Shown here in pieces: positions 21,876 to 62,986 of a stretch of DNA of 64,000 bases. A program made the translations under genes and the position numbers. Position 1 is the first letter of the stretch, and each line of letters begins with the position of its first letter. Source of the DNA: Eledone cirrhosa (lineage: Eukaryota); assembly GCA_964016885.1 (NCBI GenBank), contig OZ024741.1:343108001-343172000 (forward strand). Direction: 5' to 3'. Under the pieces are notes generated by a model, which made no database searches, had not been told where the DNA came from, and worked only from the letters and a program-made list of their open reading frames with translations.

Positions 21876-22041
21876 ACTGTTTCTACTTTTGGCACAAGGC
21901 CAGCAATTACACAGTACATTACTGGTACTTTATTTTATCGACCCCATAAGGATGAAAGGCAAAGTTAACCTTGACGGGATTTGAACTCAGACCGTAAAGG
22001 GATGTAACTATGCGTCCAACCCTCTATCGATACTGCCAATT
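21876..22041 (-). mobile_element. SINE copy
   Basis: Reverse complement of the SINE consensus. Confidence 0.85.
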
Positions 22042-22529
22042 CAATATAACGTTAACAATTATTATCTGAATTATTCTATTTTCATTATAAAATCATTTCA
22101 ATTCATTGGTTGTCATTTCATTATAGGATTAATTAGTAGTTATATTTACTCTTAAAATTATTATTATTTCGATTTTACTTCCGTAATTACATCTTATTAT
22201 ATAAAGTTTCCTTTTAAGGATTTTTCGTATATTATTAAACTGTATAAATCATATTAAATATACATTAGCAATCCGTTTGGACAGAACAAAATTATTTACG
22301 AAGAATGTAAACAAAGGAAGATAACTCGTTCAACATATGTGAACATTTAAGATATTTAAGTACTTTGAAAGCCAAAAGATATTTCAAACTGCAAATTCTG
22401 AAATTTCTAGCTACACAATGACCATTCTAAATCCAAACTTAGGATACCGAGTCTCATCATGAGATTAATTTACTATATGAAAACAATATACAATTTTTAA
22501 GGTAAGGCAAACCGTTATATATATAATAA

Positions 22530-26962: not shown

Positions 26963-28670
26963 AAGGGCGGTGTATTGAGGATATAAATCGAAATCATTAG
27001 AACGAACAGCGGGACAAAATACCTTGTGGTATTTATCTACTTCCTTTAACATTTCCAATTCAAATCCCAATAGTTTCAGCTTTGCCGTTGGGGTCGATAG
27101 AATACATATCAATCACTGTGATCGACATCATCGACTACGCCGACCCTGCAAAATATATGGCTCTGTTTGAATGTTAAAGGTCTTAATAGTATTTATTATC
27201 GTCAGATTTGAAGAGGGGTGGGAATTCCTTGAGGCATCGGATTACTGCAGTTTTCTCTTTCATCTTTCTTGTATCAATAAAATGAGTACTAAGCAGGAAC
27301 GGAGATCAATCTAATCAATTATACTATCCTCTTCTCTAAATTCGTAGCGTTTTTACCGATGTTATTATAACCAACAAGGGTGGTAGATTGGCAGTATCGG
27401 TAGAGAATCGGACACGATGCTTTGCAGCATAGAGTTACGTCCCTTTTCGGTCTGAGTTCAAATCCCACCGAGGTTTACTTTGCCTTTCATCCTTACGGGG
27501 TCGAAAAAATAAAGTACTAGTAATACACTGAGATACTTTTGCCTTGTGTCAAAAGTAGAAACAATTATTAGCCTTATTTTAAAGGCATGTCATCAATAAC
27601 ATACAGAGTACAGCTCTGTGTCCTTGGGTATGTCAGTGTTGTCATTTATATTGTATTGGGAGTACTCTTCATAATATGTGCCTAGTAGTGTTATTTTCTG
27701 TATGCTGTATATATTTATAAGTCCTGGGGTTTTGGTTATATATTTTTTTTGTATTATTGTTATTATTTTTATTTAAGGGCAGTGAATTGGCAGTATCGGT
27801 AGAGTGTTAGACGCCATGCTTTGCAGCATAGAGTTACGCCCCTTTTCGACCTGAGTTCAAATCCCACCGAGGTTAACTTTGCCTTTCAACCTTACGGAGT
27901 CGATAAAATAAAGTACCAGTAATACACTGGGATAATTGCTGGCCTTGTGCCAAAAGTAGAAACAGTTATTAGAACTAACAATGCGATGTAAAGGTAAAAT
28001 AGTTAGACCATCGGACAGAATCCCCTGAGGTACGTGTTCCGATTATTCATGTTCTGTGTTGAAATTACGCCGAGGTCACCTTTGCTTTTTCCTATTTCCA
28101 GTATCTATAAAATCGAGTACCAATGAAATACTTTGGTGTATTTCATCGACTAACTCATTTTCTCTTATGTTCTGGCTTTGTGTCCGTGTTAGAAACGATT
28201 ATTATTGGAACTAAGGGTGGTGGATTGGCAGTATCGGTAGAGCGTCAAACACCATGCTTTGCAGCATACAGTCGATAAAATAAAGCAGCAGGAATGCATT
28301 GGGATAGATTTAATCGACCTTCTCCCCCACCCTTTAACATTTCTGGCCTTGTGCCTAAAGTAGAAACTATTATTGGAACCATTGATCAGTCTATAGGATC
28401 AACTGGTCTGCTGGAAAATTGTAGTAAAATGTCCCCAATTATTGTCGCATTGTCTTTTAAAATGGAAGCCTCATTAACTACTTTTCATCACAAGTGTCCT
28501 CGATCAGATTTGACGGGAGTCACACAATTTGTCCTGGAATGTCACTGAGAGGACGGCAAATTATCGAGTCTGATAAAATTCTTGGCGGTTTTTGTTCCGG
28601 ATCCTTGCTCCCTGAGTTCAAATCCTACCGAGGTCAACTTTACCTTTCATCTTTTCAAGGTCGATAAAAA
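26963..28670 (+). mobile_element. Cluster of about six SINE copies of different ages (~26963, 27376, 27775, 27990, 28212, 28548)
   Basis: Repeated GGCAGTATCGGTAGAG, GAGTTCAAATCC and GTCGATAAAA..GTAC motifs, all on the + strand. Confidence 0.8.
27585..27745 (-). mobile_element. 3'-terminal fragment of an RLE-type LINE
   Basis: Minus strand encodes an IQKITLLGT..RVL-like C-terminus typical of R4/NeSL-type elements. Confidence 0.5.
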
Positions 28671-31384
28671 AGTAGCAGTCTACTACAAGGAACAATTCAT
28701 ATTCTATAACTCTTTCTCACTTCCTTCCTCTGACTCTCTATTTTTCTCTGGAAGTAATCGGCTGTGTTCAGACCTGGAGAGGAGATGAACTGTGCCAAGT
28801 TTTAAAATATCCAAGAAACCCCGTATATCAATATGGTGCTACTACGACTTCATCAGGTGTTAGGGATCCGTGCATGCATGAAACTAAATGCGTAGTGTTT
28901 GAATTTGTCTGTTTCGAAGCTGATTCCTCTCTATGATGGATATACTTCATAGAAGGTCCCATCATATTCACAATATTGCAGAAATACTTAACTATCAAAT
29001 GCTCTCAGACATTTAGCTGCAATTAAGCGCCAACAACTCCATGACCGCTTTCCCTTCCTGCACTGCTTTGATATATTTCAATTTCTTCTGGACAATTTGA
29101 TAAGATGGGAAAATTGTTCAGACTGCTGGAAACAAACAGATGGAAACGTTGATGAATATTCAAGATGAGGAAAATAGTATAAAAACAAAAAATAAAAATA
29201 AAACAAAACAAAATAAAATAACATACATCTATTAATGTTGTTGTTGCAGTTTCCAAGTTGACAACTGTTGCTGATGTGATGACTGTTGATTATCCGCCAT
29301 TGTATATGGCAGTTTTATCCCTGGTTGGTTTTTTTTTTTTATGTTGTTAACTTGTTGGTACAAGTGTTATAACAATTCGTGTTCGAAGTTTGTCCTTTTA
29401 TTTTTATTGCAGTTGTCTCTTGCCATTGCTTTCTGTAAAGGCAAAAATCCTTAAAAAAGGTCCTTGTCCGTATAACCATATGTAACTTCCTTTCTTCCAC
29501 AAGAACACTTGTATTTTTTAGTAGTGTATCGTAGTCGTTTTTGAGGTCGCCAGTCTTAGTCTTTTCTATCGTTATTACCACTAGCAGAAAACAACCCTTA
29601 CGGTGGTTTTCTGCTAGCATGTGTAGTGTACATATTGATATTATACGAATATATATATATATTTATGCATGTAGATATGATAGGTCAAATAAAATCGTAA
29701 TTGACAATATGCACAGAAATTGAAGAGAGACTGTGTTACACTCTCTCCTGTAATTAGTAAAGTAATCCATGATTATTTACAAAAGACGATATTATATATA
29801 AACTGCATTACGACAAAATTTTATGAAAACGAAAACAGAGAAAATTAGCGACGGAAATACCTTATATAATGATACAAATATATGAACGTTTATATAAGCG
29901 CCGTGATAATATATCATAAGCAGAAGTATTGACATTTGAAAATTTTATAGAAGTGAATCGTGAAATAAGCAATAAAATTATTTATATCTAATCAAGTGTT
30001 ACGAAATTTAGTAGATAAATTATGTAATATTCATTCATTATTTATTCAAAGTAATCCAACTTAATTTACTAACGGGATAAAAAAATATATTTAGTCCCGC
30101 AATCCTCTCTTTTTTATATTATGATAAGAAGTGCTCTGATGAACTTTTTCTTTTACTTCCAGATCACTTTGTACTATCTCGTCTTACTTGAAACTTGCAG
30201 GATCTTCATTCCGGATGCTGTTGTGGTTCTACGAATAAGTATTTATATGGTCGTAGTTTTTTTCTTCGAACTGCTAGACTTTGAAACTCTCTTCCATCTC
30301 GTTGTTTTCCTACTTCTTTTGAGCGGAACTCTTTCAAGTTCAACGCAAATCCATTCTTTTTTCTTAATTTCTCCTTCAAAATCCCTTACCCTAAGTTGCT
30401 TCAAACCTTGCTTGTGACTTCCCCCCCAAAAATAAAAAAAACTAACCATTCAATTATATATATGATTCAGTCAATGTTGATGTTTTACTGTTTTCCCGTT
30501 TTCATATGTTTATTTCATCATTCGTTTTTCTGCTGAACCCCAGAAAGGCGTCCCAGCCATGCCCACCTTGTCTTATTTCATACATATTGAATCAAGAACA
30601 CTGTCATACTATATGTCATTCTGTTATGTTTTTTGTAAAAGACGCGATTTGTGGGAAAGCTCACTGTTATTTCTTGCAGATTGACAGACCAGCTAGCGAA
30701 TCTTTTTATTGGTGTTCTTTATAGAGTGTGGAGTATCTACATGCATTGCTGCCATTGTTGCTATGGTTGCTCTTCCATATACTGTTATTATTGTTATTGT
30801 TGTTGTTATTTACACTCTTGTTTGCTATTGCTGTTATTTACTAACAGTCTCTTATATAACAAACCCATGATCAAATGTTTGCCAACGCCGACCTCCCTGA
30901 CATTTACGTTATTCAATATCTCTTTCCTATATTGGCACAGCAATATGAAGCTTGAATGCTATTTTTAGCATGTAAAACGACCACGTAGAGGCTCTCCTTC
31001 CGTTCCTGTAGCTATTGTTGTATGTATAATTTAGTGTACGTATTGTTACTGAAGTTAGTCTTCCCAGAGGAAAAGAAAAATGGCAGCTTTTCTAATTGTA
31101 GTAGTTTTTTTCCTATGCCTGTATCTGCTCCCATATACTTGGCAGATTATAAGGATATTGTTCTGCGACAAACGACAAAGGAAGAAGTTCAGTTCAAATA
31201 TCTTTCACCTAAAGGCGTAATATTGTACATCTCCATTCCATCATAATCTCTGACTACATACTACGTTCACCATAAATGTAATGAAACAATAACAAATAAA
31301 TTGTCTTCAACAGAAAAATACTGTACTTCCGTTACAATCAGATCAGCACTATGAATATCTGACTAAACTAGCAGCCAATAATAA

Positions 31385-31782
31385 TAATTGTTTCTACGCT
31401 TGGCATAAGGCCAGCAATGTGAGGGAAGGGGAAAATCGACTAAATCGACACCAGTGTGTTACTGGTACTTTATTTTATCCCCTCGTAAGAGTGAACGGCA
31501 AAGCCAACCCCGGTGGGATTTTACTCAGAACGAAAAGGGCAATAACTATATGCCACGAAGCCTGTTTTCCAAGGCTCTACCGATGCTGTCAACCCACTAC
31601 CTCTAATAATAATAATAATAATAATAATAATTGGTTTCTGATTTAGGCACCATGACAACAATTTGAAGGGTAGGGGAAAGTCGATTCAATCGACCCCAGT
31701 GCGTGACTGGTACTTTATTTTATCGACCCCGTAAGGATGAAAGGCAAAGCTAACATCGGCGAGATTTGAACTCTGAACGTAA
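31385..31782 (-). mobile_element. Two SINE copies (31385-31600 and 31630-31782)
   Basis: Reverse complement of the SINE consensus. Confidence 0.8.
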
Positions 31783-31784
31783 AA

Positions 31785-32005
31785 TCTCCTCCCAGCGGGT
31801 CCTATCAGAAGCAACCGTCTCCTACTCATCCGGCTGGATCCTCAAGCACGATCAGCCAAGTTCATAGATGTTATCCAACAATCTTGCCCATGGTCTTCCC
31901 CTGGGTCTCCTACCTGTTCATTTTGCACGTAAAATATGTCCAGCGATTCTTTCTTCAGACATTCTAACCACATGACCATAGTATCGGAGCTGTGATTTCT
32001 CAATT
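31785..32005 (-). mobile_element. RTE-clade LINE 3' fragment
   Basis: Minus strand: IEKSQLRYYGHVVRMSEERIAGHIL..GRRPRGRPWAR. Confidence 0.8.
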
Positions 32006-33093: not shown

Positions 33094-33534
33094 GTTTAAC
33101 AAGGTTCAATGAATTCATCAATGAATAAAGTTTCACAATAGATTAGAAGCACTCTACAGTTGGTTTTCTGGAGTTATTAATATTACTTCAAAATTTTAAT
33201 AAATATAGACATTCATGTGATCAAATATATTTTATTATTTCAGAGGTACTGAGCTATTTCAACAGTACGTCCTCATCAGATAAAATAAGTTGATGCCTGA
33301 CATACCTTGACTATGTTGATGGTTATAATTTAGTCATGGCAGTGATTAGTTTTTTGTCATAACTAATCACTGCCTTGACTAAATTATAACCATCAACATA
33401 GTCAAGGTATGTCAGGCATCAACTTATTTAATCTGATGAGGACGTACTGTTGAAATAGCTCAGTACCTCTGAAATATGTATAATAAAATATATTTGATCA
33501 CATGAATGTCTATATTTATTAATATTTTGAAGTA

Positions 33535-33540
<6 letters not shown>
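33085..33540. mobile_element. Fold-back HHR element (inverted arms 33180-33351 / 33361-33538)
   Basis: ~175-bp inverted repeat with 9-bp spacer, between (TA)n arrays; homologous to 21150-21340. Confidence 0.85.
33424..33490 (+). ncRNA. Minimal type I HHR motif
   Basis: TATTTAAT-CTGATGA-GGAC GTACTG..CAGTAC CTCT-GAAA-T ATGT A-TA-ATAAAATA. Confidence 0.65.
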
Positions 33541-33569
<29 letters not shown>

Positions 33570-34049
33570 TATATACATCAGTGCAATATTGACGGACGTA
33601 AGAATGAATATTAAATATTGAAGTAGAGTGTAAATATTCCTTATTATGGCTAAGTGTTCCATCTCATTAAGGGACTCTGTATTTTGATGAAGATTAGGCC
33701 ACTCGACTGCTGAGCCTTTATAGACATGATAAAAATAACAGCTAAATATCACTCAAATCGCGCCTTATCGTTTACAAAATAACATGGCTTAATGTTGTCC
33801 ACGATGGACAAACACAGAATAGTGATTGCTAAAATACAGCCCCAATACTGTCGTGCCATAGACCTAGACCCCATCCCTAACCCCCCCCCCATTCTTCTGT
33901 GACCCTAGAGCCCTTGTCTTTCCCTTCCTTTTCCGTTTTGATAACCACAAAAGACACTTGAATTTTTTACAATAAAGGATTGGTCTTTAAATACATTACA
34001 TAATAAGTTTAATGGATATCAAATATGTAACAACAGTAATTTATAACTC

Positions 34050-34590
34050 TTTCAAATATTGGCACAAGGCCAGTAATTTAGGGAAGTGTAAATTCGATTA
34101 TATCATCACCAGTACATGATTGCTACTTTATTTTATCGATCTCGGATGAATGAAATGCAAAGTTAAATTCGTCGGGATTGATCTCGGAACGTAGAAAGTT
34201 GTAATTAAATACCGAAAAGCATTTTGTCCGACGTTCTACCGATATTATGAATCCACAGTCCCTTGAATACTAATTGATAATAGTTTCTACTATAGGCACA
34301 AGGAGGGCAATTTTGTAGGAAGGGATAGTCGATTAAATCGACCGCAGTGTATTACTAATACTTTATTTTATCGACCCCGTATGGATGAAAGGCAGAGTTA
34401 ACCTCGGCGGGATTTGAACTCAGACCGGAAAGGGCCGTAACTCTATGCTGCAAGATACTATTTAATAATGGTTTCTACTATAGGCACAATGCCAGCAATT
34501 TGGGAGGGAGGGGAAAGTCGATTAAATCGACCCTAGTGCGACCCCGTAAAGATGAAAGGCAAAGTTAACCTCGGCGGGATTTGAACTCAA
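34050..34590 (-). mobile_element. Three tandem SINE copies
   Basis: Reverse complement of the SINE consensus at ~34050, ~34280 and ~34468. Confidence 0.8.
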
Positions 34591-35036: not shown

Positions 35037-35128
35037 ACATATCCGAGGAGCTTCCGTTTCCAGAGACAGGTTCAATCATTGTTAGATCGTTCCTCGAGCT
35101 GATCGACAGTGAAACATATGTAATATGT
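35037..35128 (+). ncRNA. Minimal type I HHR motif (U4C core variant)
   Basis: ACATAT-CCGAGGA-GCT...AGT-GAAA-C ATAT G-TA-ATATGT; perfect 6-bp stem I, palindromic loop III. Confidence 0.65.
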
Positions 35129-35246
35129 AATTAAATATGTATATGATGCAACACTCATTCTTTGTTCCCTTATATATTAATATTATTGATACTCGGTTCC
35201 TCAAGAGCATCAATACATACACACACATATATATATATATTTATGT

Positions 35247-35440
35247 ATAGGAAAATGTTTGACCCCGACGGCAGAGCTCAAGCTGTCGAAACGGCTATTT
35301 CTGGACTGAAATAGCCGTCGAAACGGCTTGAGCTCTGCCTTCGGGATCAAGCATTTTCCTATTACCCACTCTACTACCCTAAGGATTGAGTACTCTGGTG
35401 CGTTATGGTCCATCTGGTTCCTTACTACACCTCCTTCGTT
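35247..35440 (+). mobile_element. Short fold-back element with the 3' half of an HHR
   Basis: Inverted arms 35247-35362 around TGGACT; GAAA-CGGC..GCC(G)-TC-GGG. Confidence 0.65.
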
Positions 35441-36097: not shown

Positions 36098-36160
36098 TAT
36101 ATACGTACACACACACATATCCATAACACACACACAGAGTTATATATATATATATATATA

Positions 36161-36752
36161 TATTGTTATACTTGGGGAGGGTCATATTGTTGTAATAATA
36201 TTGCCAGAATTAATAACGGAACACACTCACTGTCTGGTTGGTTTTCGCTTCTGTATCTTTTATATCAGTTAATTTATTCGGTCCTCAATGTTTACCATTG
36301 AGTGACCAACGGTCAAAAATACAGATATAATATAGACACAAACACATATATATAGTTTAACAAAGTTCTTTCGTTGCACATCTGCAAAATCGTCAGTGGT
36401 GCTATTATGTTTCCTCCTGCTGTTTGTATGTCTACGCCATCTTTATTTAATCTGGAAACATAATAACACCACTGATGATGTTGCAGATGTGCAACGAAAG
36501 AACTTTGTTAGAGTATATATATGTGTTTGTGTCTATATTATATCTGTATTTTTTACCGTTTGTCAGTCAATGGTAAAATTGAGGACCGAATAAATTAACT
36601 GATATAAAAGATACAGAAGCGAAAACCAAACAAACAGTGAGTGTGTTCTGTTATCAATTCTGGCAATATTATTACAACAATATGACCCTCCCCAAGTATA
36701 ACAATATTTGTTTCGACACACGATTTCATATCAAAAACCTCGCAAAACTAGT
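36161..36752. mobile_element. Fold-back Penelope pLTR-like element (arms 36161-36414 / 36454-36706)
   Basis: ~250-bp inverted repeat; HHR core CTGATGA-T GTTGCA gatg TGCAAC-GAAA-GAAC-TT; terminus TGACCCTCCC.AAGTATAACAAT shared with the Penelope end at ~44970. Confidence 0.85.
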
Positions 36753-36764
36753 ATATATATATAT

Positions 36765-36952
36765 ATTAATATAGAAAAGATTCTACAAGACTAGAACTGT
36801 TTCATTCGTGAGAAATCATCAGGAAGAATAATGATTTCTCACGAATGAAACAGTTCTAGTCCTGTAGAAGGCTTATTCTAAATTAAAAAATTTATACTCT
36901 GGTATATATTGAGCAACTTACTTACTGTGGTTACTCACGATTGAACCCGGAA

Positions 36953-39662: not shown

Positions 39663-39736
<74 letters not shown>

Positions 39737-39741
39737 AATAA

Positions 39742-39890
39742 TAATTGTTTCTACTTTAGGCACAAGGCCAGCAATTACCCAGTGCATTACTGGTACTTTA
39801 TTTTACCGACCCTGTAAGGATGAAAGGCAAAGTTCACCTCGGCGGGATTTGAACTCAGATCGTAAAGGGACGTAACTATGCTGGAAAGCA
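39742..39890 (-). mobile_element. SINE copy
   Basis: Reverse complement of the SINE consensus. Confidence 0.85.
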
Positions 39891-39928
39891 TTAATAATAA
39901 TTATAATAATGAATGTGAAGACTAAAAT

Positions 39929-40502: not shown

Positions 40503-40949
40503 TATGATAAGCAGTGTCAATATTGATATATCCCTGCCATGGTTAAATATTACAATATCGATAACCTTAGCTCTTAGTTTTGGCAGGAATAATAATCTAT
40601 TTCTTTCTCAGTCCCTCCCCTTTCTCACACACAACTTCCCCATCTCTCTCTCCCTCCTTCCTCTCCCCTCCCCCTTTTTCTCTCTGTCTGTCTTTGACTC
40701 CAAATCCAACTTGTAGCTATCTAACTGCATACACACAAGCAGGCATGTACACACATATATGCAAACTAACATATATGTATGTATGCGTGTATTTATTCAT
40801 TTATGTATAAACATTATATATATGAACATACACACACATATATATTATATATATGTAAAAAAAATGGTTGACTTTGGAGGCACTAAAACATTTGAAATTT
40901 GAAATCGTGTACGTTCCAAAGCAAATGGCCTGTGGTTCTCAACTACTAT

Positions 40950-41115
40950 AGGGTCGGACGCCATGCTTTGACGCAAAGAGTTATAGCCCTTTCCATTCTG
41001 AGTTCAAATCCCGCCGAGGTTAACTTTGCCTTTCATCCTTACGGGATCGATAAAATAAAGTACCAGTAATGCATTGGTAATTGCTGGCCTTGTGCCAAAA
41101 GTGGAAACAATTATT
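40950..41115 (+). mobile_element. SINE copy
   Basis: SINE consensus. Confidence 0.85.
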
Positions 41116-41195
41116 ATGGTCATTTGCTTCGGGGAGCAAGCATTTCAAATGACAACAATTATACATACTAGGGCCACCCTATATATATATATATA

Positions 41196-42053: not shown

Positions 42054-42653
42054 GTGTATATATATATGTGTATATATATATATATATATGTGTATGTATG
42101 TATGTGTATATGGATGTGTATGTATGTGTATGTGTGTACACATGGACTAGAGTATGTATGTATATATGTGTGTGTATATACGTGTGTATATATAAAGATA
42201 AGTTGAGTATGAAAATGTATACACATGAGCGCGTATGTATGTACATGAATACATGTGTGTATATATATGTGTATGCATGTGTATATATATGTAAGTATGA
42301 ATATGTGAATTGTGAGTATATGTATTTTGTAGAGGTGTGCAAATATATTTGTGTGTGAATGCGTGGGTGAAAGAATACGTACACTTGAAAGAAAAATTTA
42401 AGTCTGAATGTTAAGTGCAAACACAAAACCAACCACGCATATCTTTACTATCTCTAATCCTTCTATAGATTTAGAAAAATAACCAATAATATATTCCATA
42501 AAAAATGTCAAAACAACAGATGGGAATCTAATTACTCACTGCCACCAAGAATTCTCACTGCTATCGAAAAACCACTCCTTCAACTATTCTTCTAACAACT
42601 TCACCCCTCCCTCCTAATATTCTCTATAAAAACTAAATAGGTCCTCAGTAATA

Positions 42654-42770
42654 TTATTCTGATGAAATGACAGTAAATAATAACATTGAAATATTGAATG
42701 TCTGCATAACTAAAAGTTTGTAGATAGCTGTTTTAGGTTATGTAACTGTTATAGAAACACGTGTCAATAA
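42654..42770 (+). ncRNA. Type I HHR motif with long stem II and GUC site
   Basis: TTATT-CTGATGA-A ATGACAGT...ACTGTTAT A-GAAA-C ACGT G-TC-AATAA. Confidence 0.78.
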
Positions 42771-42956
42771 ATTCCTTTCAACTAAACTGTATCCATTCAA
42801 ATCTTTCTATTTTTCTCCGGATTACTTTTGGAACTACAACTGGAACCGTCGAGCAAACTCTACGTGAGCTGATAATCTACTGTGTGTAATATTTATATTA
42901 CAACACAACGGAAAATACTGTATATGCATATATATATGTATATATGTATATATGTA

Positions 42957-43083
<127 letters not shown>

Positions 43084-43119
43084 GTATATACATGTGTGTA
43101 TATATATATATATATATAT

Positions 43120-43418
43120 GTCAGGTCACCAGTTGGTGCTACTGGTAACATGTATCCCAGTACAACCTGTCTTATGGTCGGGTCGTTGGCGACTAAACTG
43201 GCAACCCCACCAAGGTTTCTTGGTGAGGAGGGTGACTTTGGACATCCTGCAGGACTAAAAACAAAACCTGTCAAAGGGCAAAGGAGCTCTTAAGAGTCAA
43301 TGGCCATCCAAAATCACCGGGAGAGATGACCCCTTAGCTTTTGTCAAGGCAGAATTTTAGGAGAAGGAAAACGCTGTAATAACACCTGCAACCCTAATGA
43401 TATCCAATGATGTTGACT

Positions 43419-43419
<1 letters not shown>
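43120..43419 (+). mobile_element. 608-bp RTE-derived element, 5' half, interrupted by the Penelope element
   Basis: Matches 55707-56006 and stops at the Penelope inverted arm. Confidence 0.88.
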
Positions 43420-45070
<1,651 letters not shown>

Positions 45071-45356
45071 TTATAGATAACGAGGAATCAGTGATGCATC
45101 AAAACACAATTTATTAACATATTACATATATTTCTCCGACGATCAGCTCAAGGTAGGATCTATTACAGATCGAACCTGACTCTGCATTCGCAGATCCTGC
45201 CTTGAGCTGATCGTCAGAGAAACATATGTAATATGTTAATAAATTGTGCTTTGATGCATCACTGATTCCTCGTTATCTATAATAATATACTCTGCTCTGC
45301 GCGAGTATCGAGTACTCAAACGGCATGCCGCCTATGGCCGCATTTATTGCAACCAT

Positions 45357-45365
<9 letters not shown>
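45071..45365. mobile_element. Fold-back element (arms 45071-45161 / 45192-45282) with the 3' half of an HHR; same family as 35037 and 20173
   Basis: GAGCTGATCG..GAAACATATGTAATATG shared by three loci. Confidence 0.8.
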
Positions 45366-45388
<23 letters not shown>

Positions 45389-45460
45389 TATTGTAATAAT
45401 AATTAATTTGAAGCGATTCTTTGCTTAAACTTTAATCTGTTATTTTAATATATATATATA

Positions 45461-46290
45461 TAAATAAATACAATATCGGAAAAGCTTTTTAGCGATACTC
45501 CGGCCAAATTCCAACTAACTCAACAAACATTAGGAAATAAGTGATTATATTCCCAATTATGTGTTCGGGGTGCTAACTGAAAGTATTGCGTGGAAAATTG
45601 GCTGTATTATTTCAAATGAGACATATCTAATATATCTCTTCCCAGACGGACGTCTCGTTTCATTATATGACTCCTACAATTTTGGTGAAATTATACCAAT
45701 TTATGTAGGAGCTTGTATACCATCAATAGATATATATTCAAGTGGGCTCCTATAATTCATCAGTGGGTGCCCCAATAATACTAATATTGATAATCTAACC
45801 AACATCAGCATTTAGCGATAATCACTTTCTGTGCCTGAGGTATCTGTCAGGTAGCCAGTCCAGCAGTTCTGAAAGAAGTGCTCGAACTGATTCAAAAAAT
45901 GAGGAAGTGAATTACCGCCAAAAAAAAACATACATGCGCGTGACAATGAAGTCTGAAAGGAATTCAGGCCACGTGCTAAGAACTCAATTGGAAATTGAAA
46001 AAATATCTATGTGTGTACAACATTTGATGACACACATATTTTCTCGGGCAAAATAACAGAATGAGATATAAGGAACAATCAATATTCATATATAAAAAAT
46101 AAAACAAAGAAATGCTAACCTTATACCGGGAATTTTTTTCAAATCTGCTGCGCCAAGAGTAAGTAAATAAATACAATATCGGAGAAAGCCTTTTAGCGAT
46201 ACTCCGGCCAAATTCCAACTCACTCAACAAACATTAGGAAATAAGTGATTATATTCCCAATTATGTGTTCGGGGTGCTAACTAAAAGTAT
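45461..46290 (-). mobile_element. Retrozyme-like 703-nt unit with ~125-bp direct repeat and one HHR
   Basis: 45461-45585 repeated at 46164-46290; short (TA)n on both sides; older relative at ~57310-57595 in the opposite orientation. Confidence 0.75.
45641..45767 (-). ncRNA. Type I HHR motif with long stem II and GUC site
   Basis: Minus: CCCA-CTGATGA-ATTATA...TATAAT-GAAA-CG aGACGTC CG-TC-TGGG. Confidence 0.8.
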
Positions 46291-46551
46291 ATATATATTA
46301 CTCGATACCTAGTACTCATTACTCTCACCTGTCAACCACATACGGGTATATGTATGGCCCTTAGCAATAGGTAATTTTCCGGACGTTAAAATGTTGCTGC
46401 TCCCACGGCGGAAAATAAGTGTTTGCCCTATACCTGCGTTCTATCCTCAACTTTGCAAGTTGCCTTCCCCATTATATTTATTGTTACTTATCCTTCTAAT
46501 ACCAAGAATAAGTCTGAACAAGGTTTTAATTTAAGAGAAAATTATATGATA

Positions 46552-46610
46552 CTAGACCACCCGTGACCCGTTGGGTCACGTTCACTTCAAAATATAAAAA
46601 CAAAATCATG
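46552..46610 (-). mobile_element. Helitron-like 3' terminus
   Basis: Minus: hairpin CGTGACCC-aac-GGGTCACG, then GGTGGT-CTAG|T. Confidence 0.6.
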
Positions 46611-47844
46611 TTCACTTAAAAATAATTTTTAAATAATTAAAATATACACCGGCATGTATATAATGTGAAATGAAACTGGAAGGCCCATATATATATATAT
46701 ACGTGTGTGTATGTATATATATATATAAATGTGTGTGTTTGTATACATATATGTACATATATATATGTATATATATATGTATGTATGTATATATATATGT
46801 GGGTGTCTGTATACACTGTCCATATACACACACACTCATATATATATATACACAACAACACAACCAGCTCTCGCTCTTCCATTCTCCTACTCCGTCTCCT
46901 CTCCCTCTCTCTCTATGTCTCTCTTTGAATCTACTGTCTCATAGTCACTATCTCTTTCTCTCTATCTTTCTCTCTCTCTGTTTATGAAAGTACCCAGAAA
47001 ACCCCATATCTCGGGGAAACCGTGATCCAATTTACATGAAACTTGTTTTATTCTATTTGTATTCCCATTTCAGGGGCAACTTCCTTTCAATGTTTTTTCC
47101 AGTTTTGCGCCCTTTTGACTGTATTACATCTTCAAACTTTCACGGTCGATGAGGGCCGCCTTCACTTCGCTAACATTTTGCGTAGATTGGTTTTCTGTTG
47201 GTTGGACTAATCTAGCGGGGTGGGAGCTAAACATTTACAAAGTTGAAAAATAAGGGCCACCCTAATATATATATATCCAGAGAGAGTAACGTGAAGTTAC
47301 TGTAGGTTCACCCAGGTGAGCATGTGTATGCATATCTCCGAATGTCATCTTCAAGTAATCTCTCTCAAGATCAAAGGAAAGTGAACATAACAGATAAATA
47401 TATATAAGAAACAAACATGTATATTAGATGTTGGTCAGTGTGTATATCTTTAGGTTCTCATCATGCATACCATCTCACATACTGGTTGTCCACTACCAGA
47501 CATTCAGAGATTTGCGTATGACTTTCATTGCCTTTTAATCAGTTGATCTCACCGAGTTTCACCGAATTTCATGTCATATTCTATACTAAAAGTACAAACT
47601 CGGCAACATCACCGAATCTTCGTTGTAAATAAAACTTCGCCTCACATGATACTCTACTCTGTTTATCTTCATCTACGTTTTATACAAAATACTCTAAATG
47701 CACACAACCCCCCCCCCCCCCCCTCCTCATCACCACAACATAACAACAAGAAAACGATACTATGCAACTATAAACAGATGAAGTATTATGAAATTGGTCT
47801 GCATATTGTTTTTATAAGACTGAAAATAAAATGTACTCAGAACA

Positions 47845-48042
47845 TGTGATGGCAGAATCGGTAGAGTGTCGGACAACATGCTTTGCAACATAAAGTTACG
47901 GCCTTTTATTTTCTGATTTCAAATCCCACCGAGATTAGCTTTGCCTTTCATAAAATAAAGTACCAGTTACGCACTTGGGTCGATTTAATCGACATTGCCT
48001 TCTCTCAAAATTGTTGGCCCTGTGCCTAAATGAGAAACCATT
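47845..48042 (+). mobile_element. SINE copy
   Basis: SINE consensus with internal deletion. Confidence 0.75.
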
Positions 48043-48464
48043 GTTAAAGTTGATTTTTTCTCTATTACGCTTGTCTGGATGTCCTCAGACGGTATTACAA
48101 AAAGATGTTCAATATGGCGCTTAGAATTGTAATCGAGTGTGTGTATACTACTTCTGGTGTGTCTACAGATACAGTCATGTTTTACTTTGTTTCGTCTTTA
48201 TTTATTTTACTTCGAGTTTCATTTCTCTGTTATAATTCGCTATGGCGAATGTTAGTTGTAATTTCTGCTTGTTTATATTTTGCTGTGTACATTGGTTTGC
48301 TGAGTTAAAGTGGAGTATTTCTCAGTGTTTCAAAGTCTACATTGTTTGGTTTAATTTAATTCCACTGTTGTGTTGACTATTTGAAGCAAATGTGTTCCAC
48401 ATAGTCTTTTAGCCTCCATACTCATTTCAATGTAGCTGTGACATTATTATTAACGTTGAATATA

Positions 48465-48685
48465 GCGGTGAATTGGCAGTATTGGCAGAGCACCACACAC
48501 CATGCTTTACAGCATAGGGTTACGGCTCTTTATGGTCTGAATTCAAATCCTGATGAGGTTAGCTTTGCCTTTCATCATTACGAGGTCGACAAAATAAAGT
48601 ACCAGTAATGCATTTGGGTCAATTTAATCGACTTTCCCCTCCCCACAAATTGCTGGCCTTGTGCCTATAGTATAAATCATTATTA
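48465..48685 (+). mobile_element. SINE copy
   Basis: SINE consensus. Confidence 0.85.
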
Positions 48686-49369
48686 TCAACGTTGAAGGTG
48701 TGGAAGAAGCGGAAACAGCTTGAAATCACCTTTGCACATACTAATATAAGGCTTACCCATGATTTACAAATTTCATTTGCAAAGCCCCGTTCGTTTATCA
48801 TTTGAGGATTTGCCATTTTAATACCCTTCAGTTAGGATATGCCATTCAAAAAGACTATTTAGTCTAACTGTTGCATCTATGAATCTGGTGGTTTCCTACC
48901 GAAATTAGTGCTATATATGTATCTAATTGTAATATTCTATTTTGAATAGAGTCCAGTATGCGTGGCTGGCTAGAGAGTGCTTCTTGATTAAGATAAGTTT
49001 CCAGTTACGTTGAATATTACACCTTCATCGTAGTTGAAATTTACACTTACTGAGTTTGCTCTCATATGGATCAGCAAGTGATCTATCCCTTAAACCCTCA
49101 ATCCCAACATTTCTGTATTGTTCTAATCTAATCTGGCCGAGTTTATACTCGCAAATAAGAAGAATCAGGGCCGCCCCTAGGAGCATTGGATTGGTGTACT
49201 TCATATTTGTTTCGGTTGCTGAATACAATCAGGGGTCGCTGCTTCTCCTGAAGGTCAATAGGTCTCTTCTAACTCGAGCGGGAGCGCCTTTCCATTGTCA
49301 ATTTGCACTGATCATCTGCAAAGCCGCATAGTTTCTGAGAAACACTACACAAATCTTTCGATGCGTGCA

Positions 49370-49521
49370 GCTGGAACTACTGCCGCCCATTGATTTCTAC
49401 AGCTGAGTAATCTGGAACAACGTGAAATAAGGTGTCTTACTCACAACACATCACTTGATCCGAGAATCGAACTCACAACCTTTCGATTGCAACCCGAATG
49501 CTCTAACCACTAAGCCATGCG
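49370..49521 (-). mobile_element. Second tRNA-derived SINE family (CORE/V-domain-like)
   Basis: Minus: TGGCTTAGTGGTTAGAGC..GAGTTCGATTC..GTGAGTAAGACACCTTATTTCACGTTG; homologue at 58500-58640. Confidence 0.7.
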
Positions 49522-50259
49522 TCTATCTATATCTAGATATTGTAATTTAGTTGTTGATACTGAATTTTTCCCGAATTACAATACATCCATGAGCAGAGGC
49601 TAGACGGTGGATAGAAATCTATATTGTGGAATAACATAACTTTACATTTCCTGTTTAAGCTGTACTGTAAAAGCAAACGGCTTTTACACTGCTGTTATTT
49701 TAAAGACTAAGGTCAGGGGTTCTTCTAAATTTATTGTTCAATGTATTTATTTGATTACAGAATTCGTTCTTCACCGAGTTTATCAAATTATATTTCGGGT
49801 TTCTTGTGAAATGTTTGTTGAACTCCCCCAGATAGCTCACGTTTAGTTACACAAAATTAACCCCAATAACGTAGTTAAAGTCAGTTACAGTTACAAAAAG
49901 AATGTCGATGAATGATAATCAGCAATTTATCCTTGTATATATATATATGTGTGTGTGTCTAAGACTGTGTATGTATAAGCATCCACACACATATATATAT
50001 ATATATGTATATGCGCATATATATATGTATGTATATAAATATATATATATATATATATAACGAGGCGTGTATGTTCGCGCGTGAGTACGTTCCTTCGACT
50101 TCTCATTTCTTCAATTTCTTCAGCTGTTGATGAAATACACAGCGTTTCGTAAAGACTTGTTATAAATAACAGTCGACCACTTGTAGGCTAATATAAAATA
50201 TCCCGAACGTACAAGAGGAACGAAGAGAATGAATTTGAGAACAATCACAAAAAGAAAAC

Positions 50260-51160
50260 AAATATCTTAGTGAGGCAGTGAAAATATCTTTTCGGAAAAG
50301 AATAAGGTACAACAAATCTTACTGATGCAGTGAAAATATCTCTTGGGGAAAAAAATAGGGCATAAACAGAAATCTTACTGAGGCAGTGAAAATATCTCAT
50401 GTGAAAAGAATAGGTTGTAAACAAATCTTAGTGAAGCAGTGAAAATATCTCTTGGGAAAAGAATAAGGTACAAAAATATCTTACTGAGGCAGTGAAAATA
50501 TCTCTTGGGAAATGAATAAGGTACAATATATCTTACTGAGGCAGTGAAAATATCTCTTGGGGGAAAAAATAGGGTATAAACAAATGTTACTGAGGCAGTG
50601 AAAATATCACTTGGCGAAAGATTAAGGTACAAACAAATCTTAGTGAGGCTGTGAAAATATCTCTTGGGAAAAGCATAAAGTAGAAACACAAATCTTAGTG
50701 AGGCAGTGAAAATATCTCTAGGGAAAAGAATAAAGTACAATATATCTTAGTGAGGCAGTGAAAATATCTCCCGGGAAAAGAATAAGGTACAAAAAATCTT
50801 ACTGAGGCAGTGAAAATATCTCTTGGGAAAAGAATTAGGTACAAAACATCTTAGTGGGGCAGTGAAAATATCTCATGGCAAATAAATAAGCTGTAAGCAA
50901 ATCTTAGAGAGGCAGTGAAATTATCTCTTGGGAAAAGAATAAGTTGTAAACAAATCTTACTGAGGCAGTGAACATATCTCATGGAAAATGAATAAGGTAC
51001 AAAAATATCTTACTGAGGCAGTGAAAATATCTCATGGGAAATTAATAAGGTACACAAAATCTTACTGAGGCAGTGAAAATATCACTTGGCGAAAGATTAA
51101 GGTACAAACAAATCTTAGTGAAGCAGTGAAAATATCTCTTGGGAAATAAATTAGGTCCAA
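50260..51160. repeat. Minisatellite, about 17 copies of a ~52-bp unit
   Basis: AATCTTA(C/G)TGAGGCAGTGAAAATATCTCTTGGGAAAAGAATAAGGTAC repeated in tandem. Confidence 0.95.
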
Positions 51161-51394
51161 ACCAGAAAATACCTACGGTTTATCTATTACCTAGGCACAG
51201 GTGAGATTGAAATGGCAAATCTTAATTCGTCTTATCTAGGTATTTATTCTATGATTGTGCCGTACAACAAATTAGAAATTTGTTGGGGATTATGAGGCAT
51301 GTCCGTATTAATTAGATACACAGAAAGAAGGAATAAGTTAGAATATACGTATATAAATATATACTATAGAATATATTCAGTCCTCCAAATATAA

Positions 51395-54488: not shown

Positions 54489-55096
54489 GTCAGATCACCA
54501 GTTGATGCTACTGGTAACATGTATCCCAGTACAACCTGTCTCATGGTCGGGTCGTTGGCGACTAAACTGGCAACCCCACCAAGGTTTCTTGGTGAGGAGG
54601 GTGGCTTTGGACATCCTGCAGGACTAAAAACAAAACCTGTCAAAAGGCAAAGGGGCTCTTAAGAGTCAATAGCCATCCAAAATCACCGGGAGAGATGACC
54701 CCTTAGCCTTTGTCAAGGCAGAATTCTAGGAGAAGGAAAACTCTGATATAACACCTGCAACCCTGATGGTATCCAATGATGTTGACTTGTTCTTCTTTTT
54801 GGTAAATATCATCTTGGTTAAGAGAGTGGGACTGGCTTTGTGCAGTGCCTTTGCTCACTATAAAAGCTTCACAGCACAGGCATTGCTTTATATCTGGAGA
54901 TCTCTCTGCACTTGTCGTCACATGGCACCATGGGCCCAGCACTATGTGTCAATAATTGTCACAAGTGTAGTGTTTGTACCAGAGTTTTCAAGTCGCTGGC
55001 TGGACTAAAAAGTCACATTCGTTCAGCGCATTGGTAGGGGTTCTCCTACATGGATATAAAGTAGTGGCTGTACTCGAAAACGAGTTGGCAGCCACC
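54489..55096 (+). mobile_element. 608-bp bipartite RTE-derived non-autonomous element, full copy
   Basis: 5'-UTR-like head joined to an RTE C-terminal zinc-finger remnant (HKCSVCTRVFKSLAGLKSHIRSAHW*) and short 3' UTR; TATG-rich flanks. Confidence 0.85.
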
Positions 55097-55706: not shown

Positions 55707-56314
55707 GTCAGGTCACCAGTTGGTGCTACTGGTAACATGTATCCCAGTACAAACTGTCTCATGGTCGGGTCATTGGCGACTAAACTGGCAACCCCACCAA
55801 GGTTTCTTGGTGAGGAGGGTGACTTTGGACATCCTGCAGGACTAAAAACAAAACCTGTCAAAGGGCAAAGGAGCTCTTAAGAGTCAATGGCCATCCAAAA
55901 TCACCGGGAGAGATGACCCCTTAGCCTTTGTCAAGGCAGAATTCTAGGAGAAGGAAAACTCTGATATAACACCTGCAACCCTGATGGTATCCAATGATGT
56001 TGACTTGTTCTTCTTTTTGGTAAATATCATCTTGGTTAAGAGAGTGGGACTGGCTTTGTGCAGTGCCTTTGCTCACTATAAAAGCTTCACAGCACAGGCA
56101 TTGCTTTATATCTGGAGATCTCTCTGCACTTGTCATCACATGGTACCATGGGCCCAGCACTATGTGTCAATTATTGTCACAAGCGTAGTCTTTGTACCAG
56201 ATTTTTCAAGTCGCTGGCTGGACTAAAAAGTCACACTTGTTCAGCGCATCAGTAGGGGTTCTCCTACATGTATATAAAGTAGTGGCCGTACTCTAAAACG
56301 AGTTGGCAGCCACC
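55707..56314 (+). mobile_element. 608-bp bipartite RTE-derived element, full copy
   Basis: Near-identical to 54489-55096. Confidence 0.85.
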
Positions 56315-56841: not shown

Positions 56842-56912
<71 letters not shown>

Positions 56913-57697
56913 TATTTCCAGATACTTTTTAGGTATGACTTTCCGTATTTATTCTTTGTATGAAATATTGATTGTTCTTCCGGTATCTTATCTCTGTTTT
57001 TAGCCTAAGAAAATACCTATATGCGTGTATAAATAATACATGCATATATTTATCTTTTTATATCCAATTGAGTTCTTCACGCATGGTCAAAATTATTGAA
57101 AGAATTAATTGACCCGCGTGCATATTATTTTATTATTTGCGATGACCTCCCCTCTCCGCTTGATGGCAGTGTGAGATCTCTCATTGTGAGACTACTGGAA
57201 TTTCAAATTTGGCGGTAATTCTAGCGCACAGGGGTACCATCGCTGAACATTAATATCGATAAGGTTTTTTTTTTTTTTTTTTTTCATATCGATATTTGTC
57301 GATTTATAAGTGCCCACCTATATATATTCCTACGGACTATGTGTAGGCTTCTACATAACCTGGACATTATTTTCCCAATTTGTAGAAAACTTATAATGAA
57401 ACGATCGTTTGGAAAGAGAGATGTATTTTAATTATGTCTCATATAAAATAATACAACTGGCTATCCGCAAAATACGTATAGTTAGCACCCCAAACGTAAA
57501 ATTGGGATTATACTAAGGTATATCCTAATGTTTGTTGAGTGAGACGGAAGCCGGTCGGAGTATTGCTTAAAGCTTTCTCTGTTAATGTATTAAATATATA
57601 TATATATATATATACACATTTACACAGACACGAAGCTCCAACCGATAAGGTTGTTTTTTTTCCGGGTATGTCAATATTTATTTATAAAACAAATCTG

Positions 57698-58499: not shown

Positions 58500-58637
58500 A
58501 TCGGTCGCAACTCCAGGTAGAAGGAGCAACGTGAAATAAAGTGTCTTGCTCAAGGAGAACGCATCGCCCGGTCAGGGAATCGAACTCACAACCTCACGAT
58601 TGCGAATCCGATTCTCTAACTCCTCAGCCACATGCCT

Positions 58638-58640
<3 letters not shown>
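58500..58640 (-). mobile_element. CORE/V-like tRNA-derived SINE
   Basis: GTGAAATAAAGTGTCTTGCTCAAGG..GGAATCGAACTC on the + strand. Confidence 0.75.
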
Positions 58641-58712
<72 letters not shown>

Positions 58713-59572: not shown

Positions 59573-59618
<46 letters not shown>

Positions 59619-59876
59619 GGAAAAAATGAAACGAAATTTCATTTCCCACTCTTAGTACGGCTGTTACTTAAATATAAGTATGAACACGTACATACATATA
59701 TGTATACAGACGTACAGTAGTATGTATATATACATACATGCACACATATATATATGTACGTATGGATTCACCGAACATTTATTATAATGCCCGGTGTGTT
59801 TGTAAACAAACATCCCGTTTTAAAGCCGTAGTGTCTAGCAACCATCGTTGCTCGTTTGTTCAACACTGACAACGGA

Positions 59877-59919
59877 ACGCTGTACTAGTTTCAAGCTTAT
59901 TAGCTATCGTCAGCAACGT
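59877..59919 (-). ncRNA. Minimal type I HHR motif
   Basis: Minus: ACGTTG-CTGACGA-T AGCT aata AGCT T-GAAA-CTAG-TA-CAGCGT. Confidence 0.82.
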
Positions 59920-60264
59920 ATACCTTCCTGCCAGATTGTTGAACGTATATACTTACCTTATGCATATTAACGGCTGAGTAGCCCAATTTGCATATCGAGT
60001 GGGTTAATCGGCCGGGTGCACCGAAAAGGATAAACGGAAACAATGAAACGAAATTTCATTTCCCACTCTTAGTACGTCTGTTACTTAAATATAAGTATGT
60101 TCACGTACATACATATATGTATACAGACGTACAGTAGTATATATACATACATGCACACATATATATATGTACGTATGGATTCACCGAACATTTATTATAT
60201 GGCTACTCAGCCGTTAATATGCATAAGGTAAGTATATACGTTCAACAATCTGGCAGGAAGGTAT

Positions 60265-60307
60265 ACGTTGCTGACGATAGCTAATAAGATTGAAACTAGT
60301 ACAGCGT
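60265..60307 (+). ncRNA. Minimal type I HHR motif (one stem II mismatch)
   Basis: ACGTTG-CTGACGA-TAGCT aata AGATT-GAAA-CTAG-TA-CAGCGT. Confidence 0.7.
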
Positions 60308-60508
60308 TCCATTGTCAGTGTTGAACAAACGAGCAACGATGGTTGCTAGACACTACGGCTTAATATGGGATGTTTGTTTACAAACACACCGAGCATTATA
60401 ATAAATGTTCGGTGAATCCATACGTACATATATATATGTGTGCATGTATGTATATATATATGCATACTACTGTATGTCTGTATACATATATGTATGTACG
60501 TGGACATA

Positions 60509-60558
<50 letters not shown>

Positions 60559-60562: not shown

Positions 60563-61210
60563 ATAAAATTAAAAAAGTGGAGAGTAACATGGTCAACAGT
60601 ACAAAAAAGGAGATTTATTTACAGTCTAACAATTGATTCACTGATAGAGTTGTCTAAAAATCGCTAAACACTGAAAGTAGTGCCACTCAATTTAAAATAC
60701 ATGTCATCTGCATCATATCCTCAGAGTCTAAGAGAAAATATAAATATATGCGTAACCGGCAAATTTATAAATTCAAATTGCCACATCAATAATAATATTA
60801 ATAATAAATATATAGAGAGAAAAAAAGGATAGATATAGTAAAGATAGAAAGGAAGGGAAGAAGAAAGACGAAAGAGAAAATATAAATATATGCGTAATGG
60901 GCAAATTTACAAATTCAAGTTTGAATTTGTAAATTGATTTGCATTTTAAATTGAATGGCACTACTTTCAGTGTTTAGCGGCTTTTAGACAACTCTATCAG
61001 TGAAACAATTGTTAGACTGTAAATAAATCTCCGTTTTTGTACTGTTGACCATGTTATTCTCCACTTTTTCAATTTTATTACTCCAAGTTAAACTTACATA
61101 GGAATACAAGGGAAGTCACCCACGTAAACCTCTTGTTGAGTCATACAACGCTGTACGCTAAAACTATCCACAACCTCTAATCGGATTACCTGTAACGATA
61201 TCTTGTTATC
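60563..61210. mobile_element. Fold-back element (arms 60563-60698 / 60943-61078) with degenerate HHR
   Basis: ~135-bp inverted repeat; GAAA-CAATTG-TT-AGAC in the right arm; CTGAGGA on the minus strand at ~60720. Confidence 0.75.
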
Positions 61211-61600
<390 letters not shown>

Positions 61601-62090: not shown

Positions 62091-62803
62091 TATACACACA
62101 CACACACACCCCCACGCACGCACCCCACCCCCCCACACACATACACTCATAAACACACACACACACACACACACAGTAGTAGGAGCACTAACACAGCATG
62201 ATTCATCATAGAGGCGTTCTTCACTTCAGTCTGTATCATTTCATTCTGAATCCCGATCCGGTCTGGTTCCTTCTCATCGTCATTACAGAGGTCGGAGGCA
62301 ATGGACAATCTATAAATCCTTGACTTTCATCGAGACAAAAGTGACGACCATTACCCGGAAGCTGGTTACTGAGGTTCCTTCATGACAAACGTGAAATCAT
62401 TGGATTCTGATAAATTATAAAGAACAGTAGATTCTACATTATCACAGATTGTGTACAGACAGAGTACAGCAACATATTATATACAAACGTGACAAGTACC
62501 CTCCTCCTCCTCCCCATCCTCCTCCCCATCCTCCTCCTCATCCCCCCTCTTCCCCGCATATCCCCCCTCCTCCTCCTCTTGCTCCCCCCTCCTGACCCTT
62601 CTCCTACCCCAAGCCTTCCCCTTCCTCCTCCTCTTGACCCCCCCATCCCATCTCGGGCAAATAGTTGACAACAACAACAACATGAACGTCAACAAGAATA
62701 TCAACTATCGCCCTGAATCTAGGACACAAAACGGCTCATTTAAAAATATTTATCTTTATATTAAAACTTCCTACTATAATTTTATTTTAAAAAAATTGTT
62801 AAA

Positions 62804-62986
62804 TAATTGTTTCTACTTTGGCACAAGGCCAGCAATTATCTCAGTGTAATACTAGTACTATATTTTATCGACCCCGTAATGATGAAAGACAAAGTTAACC
62901 TCGGCGGGATTTGAACTCAGATCATAAAATGCCGCAACTCTATGCTACCATGCTTGGCGTCCAACGCTCTACCGATACTGCCAATC
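62804..62986 (-). mobile_element. SINE copy
   Basis: Reverse complement of the SINE consensus. Confidence 0.85.

Follow-up and report, generated by a model that had tools for sequence, protein, structure and literature searches.

A non-coding 703-nt repeat unit with a type I hammerhead motif and a long helix II arm in Eledone cirrhosa

Architecture of the insertion and its older relative

The analysed window is a 64,000-nt stretch of the Eledone cirrhosa genome (contig OZ024741.1, forward-strand positions 343,108,001 to 343,172,000), which consists of AT-rich animal DNA rich in microsatellites and retroelement remains. It contains a non-coding insertion at 45461..46290 (minus strand), composed of a 703-nt unit (45461..46163, minus strand) and a 127-nt partial copy arranged in partial tandem. 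With a length of 830 nt, the insertion amounts to 1.18 units, in agreement with the roughly 1.2 units given in an earlier note on this DNA. Alignment revealed that positions 45461–45586 are repeated at 46164–46290 at an offset of 703 nt, with 123 of 127 alignment columns identical (three substitutions and one indel). On the minus strand, which carries the ribozyme motif, the order is the 127-nt copy of the 3′ end, the full unit, and a (TA)n tract. The upstream copy of the 3′-terminal 127 nt, or pseudo-LTR (pLTR; 46164..46290, minus strand), ends 57 nt before reaching the hammerhead cleavage site. By sequence inspection, (TA)n tracts (no strand assigned) were located at the 3′ end, as the target site (45448..45460), and at the 5′ end (46288..46298), and no target-site duplication is resolvable in these microsatellite flanks. 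At the internal junction, the 3′ end passes directly into unit sequence without any (TA)n, and the ribozyme site was copied intact. Given the 3–4 differences between the 127-nt arms and the rate of 0.0036 per million years quoted by Bonar 2026 (PMC13282606), the insertion is roughly 3–4 million years old, with a wide error, if the arms were identical at insertion.

The longest ATG-started frames of the unit, read as a circle, encode 39 aa (sense) and 40 aa (antisense), and a tblastn comparison with 10 Penelope-like element (PLE) protein queries found no coding remnant (best E-value, 0.58); a hidden ORF was rejected after these checks. An ORF for reverse transcriptase (RT) plus GIY-YIG endonuclease, the criterion for an autonomous PLE, is absent from the element. 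A tRNA-derived SINE was likewise rejected, as the unit contains no tRNA detectable by ARAGORN and no Rfam tRNA match. One pattern scan of bacterial and archaeal genomes for stray copies gave no matches, as expected for an animal repeat. The GC content around the unit is 0.34–0.36 (2-kb bins), below 50%, as expected of non-LTR retrozymes, which are non-coding repeats with a type I hammerhead.

Extensive folding of the unit is predicted for the minus strand, with z-scores of −6.6 for the sense and −3.4 for the antisense strand (40 shuffles each) and −5.1 for the sense strand as a circle; the sense value had been −11 with 20 shuffles. Background windows ranged from +2.0 to −5.8, and four of 22 were below −3 (22 of 30 candidates folded, 12 shuffles each). 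The folding of the unit sits at the tail of this background and not far outside it.

An older relative of the unit is found at 56911..57595 (plus strand) as a colinear monomer of approximately 0.97 units between (TA)n tracts. Its counterpart in the unit extends from roughly 46137 to 45461; the relative begins about 26 nt inward of the junction and has the same 3′ end point ahead of (TA)n. Sequence identity is 63% overall, rising to 72.5% in the 3′-terminal 320 nt and to 80% in the final 121 nt. The earlier note had placed this inverted relative at 57310–57595 and had read GAAA-CGATCG-TT-TGG in it; the motif is present, but the copy extends to 56911, which makes it almost a whole unit, and its core is decayed. 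The relative has folding z-scores of −5.0 on the ribozyme strand and −3.7 on the other. A profile search of the window retrieved no further copies, leaving two, in neither of which a 30–40-nt tail or an inverted 5′ copy, both optional in non-autonomous PLE derivatives, was seen. Both copies are colinear and have a fixed 3′ end at (TA)n, so that the circular permutations for which the earlier note had proposed a check were not encountered. The same note had regarded fixed ends together with an upstream ORF as the mark of an ordinary pLTR; a fixed 3′ end was found, and no ORF.

The best-conserved part of the unit is the last ~120 nt of the 184-nt tail located 3′ of the cleavage site (45461..45644, minus strand; 80% identity to the relative over 121 nt). 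The hairpins of this tail include two compensatory pairs relative to the older copy, and its last ~120 nt are likely to form the signal for the mobilising RT. Covariation over the whole unit was rejected as strong evidence: for double changes, p-values of 0.061 and 0.002 were obtained with sense folds, and 0.008 and 0.54 with antisense folds, which is borderline and not strand-specific, and two of eight control comparisons also gave p < 0.05.

The arrangement could in principle have arisen by a template switch between two 5′-truncated 3′ ends, derived from an autonomous PLE whose 3′ UTR is long; in that case 703 nt would be a truncation length and no unit would exist. PLE copies are typically 5′-truncated and arranged in partial tandems (Craig 2021, PMC8557442), and octopus Naiad consensi have, judged by eye, AT-rich 3′ regions of about 0.9–1 kb (PMC8557442). 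Nevertheless, this origin is unlikely, since the start points of two copies at 63% identity are no more than about 26 nt apart, suggesting a genuine 5′ boundary, and the tblastn comparison described above revealed no trace of a coding region.

Hammerhead motifs and their helix II arms

Descriptor matching identified a type I hammerhead at 45641..45767 (minus strand). It contains CUGAUGA (45763–45757), GAAA (45661–45658), and GUC, with predicted cleavage after 45645; helix I is formed by 45767–45764 and 45644–45641. The motif thus has the CUGANGA, GAAA, and NUH elements of the type I core and three helices in type I order. Positions are numbered according to the standard hammerhead scheme. The cleavage site lies 184 nt from the 3′ end of the element, on the strand of the fixed end. 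The perfect core, GUC, 6-bp helix II base, and GACGTC palindrome of the earlier note were all recovered, on the minus strand, but its description of the hammerhead as strong could not be upheld. Helix I has only 4 bp, and helix II opens with A–U pairs and lacks a G10.1–C11.1 pair. Helix III (45646..45658, minus strand) consists of 3 bp closing a 7-nt loop that contains GACGTC (45654–45649), and is unstable as a hairpin (0.0 kcal/mol). Moreover, no Rfam hammerhead family was matched, either at the gathering threshold on the whole window or in E-value mode on 43000–47000 and 45470–46290.

The self-complementary helix III loop would act as a dimerisation element, with a predicted homoduplex energy of −14.7 kcal/mol. 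The active monomer fold could be forced at a cost of 8.6, 12.2, and 8.9 kcal/mol in three sequence contexts, with pair probabilities below 0.01, and is disfavoured because a competing hairpin buries the core. The dimeric active fold (−71.1 kcal/mol) is within 1.7 kcal/mol of two free monomers (−72.8 kcal/mol) and 9.6 kcal/mol above the best two-strand fold (−80.7 kcal/mol), tertiary contacts being outside the model. According to these calculations, the hammerhead does not take the canonical fast form, with a G10.1–C11.1 pair and a stable monomer fold, and it probably cuts slowly, as a dimer through the palindromic helix III. For a possible pseudoknot, the 4-bp complement between the stretch 5′ of helix I and loop II is not significant in this hammerhead taken alone (p = 0.28). 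Slow, dimer-type PLE hammerheads have been described (Cervera 2014, PMC4209133; Weinberg 2019, PMC6765202), and pseudoknots between helices I and II are known in hammerheads (Perreault 2011, PMC3088659).

The strict descriptor retrieved three motifs from the 64-kb window and none from 100 of 100 locally shuffled windows, and the relaxed descriptor seven and none in 100, respectively; the descriptors were composed after the motifs had been seen, which makes the shuffle test somewhat favourable. These counts bear on the proposal that the partial repeat was made by two separate insertions or by DNA-level duplication, and that the hammerhead is a chance match. Elements targeting (TA)n do accumulate at the same tracts, and the ribozyme fold differs from the minimum-energy fold. 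However, the junction contains no (TA)n remnant, shuffled sequence yielded no descriptor matches, the helix II arm and the palindrome are kept in the relative, and the same layout recurs in unrelated families, all of which make this proposal very improbable.

Helix II is extended by an arm of 95 nt (45662..45756, minus strand), for which a 6-bp base, a three-way junction, two hairpins, and an unpaired CCCAC stretch are predicted. Folded alone, the arms of the unit and of the relative yield a similar junction with two hairpins. In the relative, whose core (57296–57302) and helix I are decayed, the arm is preserved (57303–57397). Among the 33 arm pairs predicted from the 703-nt copy, 19 are the same in the relative, two are changed on one side, five are compensatory, and seven are broken, compared with 14.4 broken pairs expected (p = 0.0006); double changes gave p = 0.023, from two sequences. 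Helix III is also self-complementary in both copies despite different sequences, and in the relative it is a perfect 8-nt palindrome (57401–57408). Based on the two sequences, the long helix II arm looks real.

The other unit-plus-fraction periods reported in the earlier note (488, 417, and 634 nt) were confirmed, with two hammerheads in the 488-nt, one in the 417-nt, and none found in the 634-nt repeat. The first comprises a 488-nt unit and a 182-nt fraction between (TA)n tracts (16987–17655, minus strand), with two intact hammerheads detected by descriptor match and only a short TA-rich stretch at the junction. Its hammerhead has a 55-nt helix II arm and a palindromic helix III, and the isolated motif folds into the active form at no cost. 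The start of loop II is complementary to the 8 nt that directly precede helix I (p about 0.0005); this predicted pairing could be a pseudoknot or an inhibitory hairpin instead. Since it has two hammerheads, compared with one at the 703-nt locus, the 488-nt unit would be the best candidate for a circular RNA in the window.

A third long-armed type I hammerhead occurs at 42640–42922 (plus strand; core at 42659, 88-nt spacer, palindromic helix III, predicted cleavage after 42765). The motif is followed by a (TA)n tract 157 nt further on and shows no sequence kinship with the 703-nt unit. The 417-nt family includes a unit plus fraction followed by an inverted copy (59618–60555) and a truncated second copy (61331–61599), with short, Hydra-like hammerheads at 59913 and 61571 (minus strand). 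At its junction, the 3′ end runs on into unit sequence without (TA)n, and both its inverted 5′ copy and its two 3′ ends about 51 nt apart, resembling a PLE tail, are PLE signatures. The 634-nt unit and its 45-nt fraction (20458–21136) again sit between (TA)n tracts. Their sole hammerhead trace is a half core, CUGAUGA, on the minus strand; in one copy a GAAA precedes it, and published octopus Naiads, inspected by eye, show the same arrangement at their 3′ end. At all six tabulated hammerhead sites, cleavage would occur 72–265 nt upstream of a 3′ end adjoining (TA)n. The 703-nt unit was compared with the 488-, 417-, and 634-nt units, the element at 42659, two PLE 3′ regions, and the palindrome at 45070, and no similarity was found in 16 comparisons (|z| ≤ 1.3), whereas the same strand of its relative gave a z-score of 58.

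Thus, the window contains three unrelated families with helix II arms of 55 nt (488-nt unit), 88 nt (42659), and 95 nt (703-nt unit). Compared with shuffles, the folding z-score is −4.3 for the 88-nt arm and −2.0, which is marginal, for the 55-nt arm. The published descriptors consulted limit loop 2 to 10 nt (PMC4209133) or the core-to-GAAA spacer to 17 nt (Craig 2021, PMC8557442), and the longest loop 2 regions in the hammerhead table of Craig 2021 are, by eye, about 28–35 nt and flagged as deviant (PMC8557442). Among the papers listed by literature searches, no title or opening of an abstract described cephalopod retrozymes or natural hammerheads with such arms. What is unusual about the 703-nt element is its helix II arm, which is long and conserved and has counterparts in two other families; the architecture is already known.

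As a rather speculative extension, several unrelated (TA)n-targeted, non-autonomous PLE families of this genome might carry active hammerheads with 55–95-nt arms, gated by dimerisation and a helix I–loop II pseudoknot, invisible to Rfam and to published descriptors, and in some cases expressed as circles of ~500–700 nt. If so, hammerheads and retrozymes would be undercounted in metazoans, and such motifs might lie concealed in some PLE families regarded as 'ribozyme-less'. The long-armed hammerheads of the window escape Rfam and exceed the limits of the descriptors consulted, and it is this ribozyme form that could matter.

Mobilisation, template and known relatives

Two PLE remnants accompany the insertion, so that RT and GIY-YIG sequences occur in the same 64-kb window. 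The first is a 5′-truncated PLE with an inverted 5′ copy (43418–44970, plus strand), which includes a palindrome (43418–44101, 87%), a Cys-rich linker preceding a GIY-YIG frame (44161–44571), a minimal hammerhead at 44777, and (TA)n at 44970. Its cleavage site lies 158 nt upstream of its 3′ end, and the remnant ends about 500 nt from the 703-nt element. None of 117 candidate homologues of the endonuclease piece at 44161 passed. The second, a 5′-truncated PLE identified by domain matches (17865–19782, plus strand), has RT and GIY-YIG in two frames, and neither strict nor relaxed descriptors detected a hammerhead in its 3′ region. The only named homologue among seven matches to its RT (17888–18487) is a protein of Octopus bimaculoides (55% identity), a single transposon protein that would make an octopus the probable host.

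The absence of an ORF, the partial tandem, the fixed 3′ end, (TA)n on both sides, and a sense type I hammerhead suggest that the element is probably a non-autonomous, retrozyme-like retroelement of Penelope type with a unit of ~700 nt, and that the template copied by a PLE protein was an RNA of this passenger exceeding one unit in length. Most likely, the element is mobilised by enzymes that Penelope retrotransposons supply. In published descriptions, PLE insertions take the form of partial tandems with a truncated copy before a longer one, often in (TA)n, with a hammerhead near the 3′ end (Craig 2021, PMC8557442). Counted against this interpretation are the two copies only, the borderline covariation, and the position of the dimeric fold 9.6 kcal/mol above the best one. 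Comparison with the two PLE 3′ regions and the other units of the window yielded no autonomous partner sharing a homologous 3′ end. None of five short words from the element matched in the published Naiad/Chlamys/Hydra consensus file, where a match may be masked by line breaks. An origin from Naiads was considered, given that those of octopus also target (TA)n and that one of them bears the label 'half core' (PMC8557442), and was rejected, their 3′ ends showing no resemblance by eye.

In the proposed mechanism, a master locus would be transcribed as an RNA longer than one unit, and the RT/GIY-YIG protein of an autonomous PLE would bind the conserved 3′ region, nick a (TA)n tract, and start reverse transcription at a fixed internal site. 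The RT would then read through the intact ribozyme into the preceding unit and stop after 1.18 units, or after about 0.97 in the relative. The hammerhead, probably a slow and dimeric cutter, would play no part in setting the insertion ends. For an anole PLE, reverse transcription was reported to begin at fixed internal positions 3′ of the hammerhead that share no homology with the AT-rich target; cleavage by the ribozyme was dispensable in vitro, and the main substrate was uncleaved RNA (Frangieh 2024, PMC11167929). By subtraction of the positions given there, initiation falls about 85–92 nt 3′ of the cut site.

That the template exceeded one unit is supported by the lack of (TA)n at the junction and by the intact copying of the ribozyme site. 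The fractions of the 703-, 488-, and 417-nt repeats are 127, 182, and 165 nt long, and the distances from cleavage site to end are 184, 72, and 265 nt, respectively; in none of these three cases does the end of the fraction coincide with the cleavage site, which argues that the ribozyme does not define insertion ends. The earlier note's idea of reverse transcription past one round of a circular or tandem RNA is therefore retained as regards a longer-than-unit template, while a circle is not favoured over a linear multimer. A circle, a linear multimer, and a template jump all yield the observed pattern, and a circle is not needed. For the template, an uncleaved linear multimer is given about an even chance, a ligated circle comes second as a distinctly less probable choice, and a template jump between monomers is less probable still.

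The circle would make the element a true circRNA retrozyme, in which two hammerheads cut tandem loci and ligation produces a 703-nt circle as the RT template. This special case of the preferred reading is considered possible though doubtful. The core is perfect, the sense strand is predicted to be folded also as a circle, circular forms of other repeats with type I hammerheads have been demonstrated in metazoans (Cervera 2020, PMC7229834), and more-than-unit copying of circles was proposed in 2014 to explain PLE tandems (PMC4209133). Fixed ends are compatible with a circle as well, because PLE reverse transcription begins at a fixed internal site. On the other hand, the active monomer fold is disfavoured, and the 703-nt locus could not release unit-length RNA alone, because it has a single hammerhead. 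In addition, eight of nine Xenopus retrozyme dimers were uncleaved in vitro (Li 2026, 10.64898/2026.07.22.740005), and the PLE studied by Frangieh 2024 (PMC11167929) could do without ribozyme cleavage in vitro. Furthermore, the relative ends about 26 nt from exactly one unit, which is seldom expected of random stopping, although this is one post hoc case.

The element resembles metazoan non-LTR retrozymes in being non-coding, AT-rich, and folded, with a type I hammerhead and coexisting PLEs (PMC7229834). Its 703 nt fall inside the range of retrozyme units, 51–972 bp, for which monomer copies are common, and a descent of retrozymes from pLTRs has been argued (Li 2026, 10.64898/2026.07.22.740005). 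However, the unit is longer than invertebrate retrozyme circles of 170–400 nt (Cervera 2020, PMC7229834), and the locus, with 1.18 units and one hammerhead, differs from 'active' retrozymes as defined by two hammerheads (Li 2026). No cephalopod is among the taxa named in the main text portions on retrozymes of Cervera 2020 (PMC7229834) and Li 2026. The 95-nt helix II arm also sets the hammerhead apart from those of known metazoan retrozymes.

The partial tandem, (TA)n target, and sense hammerhead near the 3′ end are likewise those of pLTRs of PLEs with a C-terminal endonuclease (EN), by resemblance the Hydra clade, and also Neptune/Poseidon (PMC8557442). A Hydra family is listed for Octopus bimaculoides (Craig 2021, PMC8557442). 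In many Hydra hammerheads of File S2, inspected by eye, helix I has 4 bp, helix II is flanked by one additional nucleotide on either side, and helix III is near-palindromic with 3–4 bp, as in the 703-nt motif (PMC8557442). Their loop 2, however, is ~3–10 nt in the File S2 table, compared with the 95-nt arm (PMC8557442), and the element, unlike Hydra-clade PLEs, has no RT-EN ORF and no sequence match to a known family in the window or in the consensus-file word search. With minimal dimer-type PLE hammerheads it shares a short helix I, a longer helix II, a palindromic helix III, and a probable dimeric and probably slow mode of action, but it has no G10.1–C11.1 pair, and its branched arm is far over the 10-nt limit for loop 2 (PMC4209133). 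Non-autonomous Chlamys PLEs, e.g., MRC1, similarly form pLTRs (Craig 2021, PMC8557442) and head-to-tail copies; they are algal, mostly without hammerheads, and have 3′ ends in common with known autonomous partners (PMC8557442). The class of partial-tandem elements and the idea of more-than-unit copying are already published, and the architecture by itself is unremarkable. Small PLE passengers that lack coding capacity and have fixed 3′ and variable 5′ ends offer a compact system for the question of circles versus linear multimers in PLE partial tandems.

Further repeats in the window

The retroelement remains of the window comprise frames for LINE-type RT and endonuclease in addition to the two PLE remnants with GIY-YIG, one of which also has RT. 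Two decayed LINEs are located at 1165–4576 (plus strand) and 10444–13346 (minus strand), one with an exo/endonuclease-phosphatase domain and RT and the other with RT. Long palindromes, mostly adjoining (TA)n, were observed at 45070–45283 (with relatives near 35061–35183), 33180–33538, 36160–36707, 36756–36896, 35247–35362, and 60563–61078, and are probably inverted truncated ends of PLE type. A ~190-nt SINE-like family is abundant (6652–6857, 8265–8440, 21859–22043, 27376–27972, 39722–39891, 40947–41117, 62800–62986, and others), with more diverged relatives near 31380–31790, 34040–34590, and 47850–48690. A tRNA-like sequence at 49414–49540, with a second copy at 58523–58658 and a weak Rfam tRNA match at 49460–49517 (minus strand), is probably a tRNA-derived SINE head. 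A 606-nt direct repeat with a period of 1218 nt and a microsatellite in between (54491–55096 and 55709–56314) has truncated copies at 43122–43419 and 13537–13681, and a 53-nt minisatellite is present in 17 copies at 50264–51162. The stretch at 45392–45447, between two (TA)n tracts beside the 703-nt insertion, seems to be the end of another repeat, and a 29-nt exact inverted match links 45412–45440 with 16092–16120.
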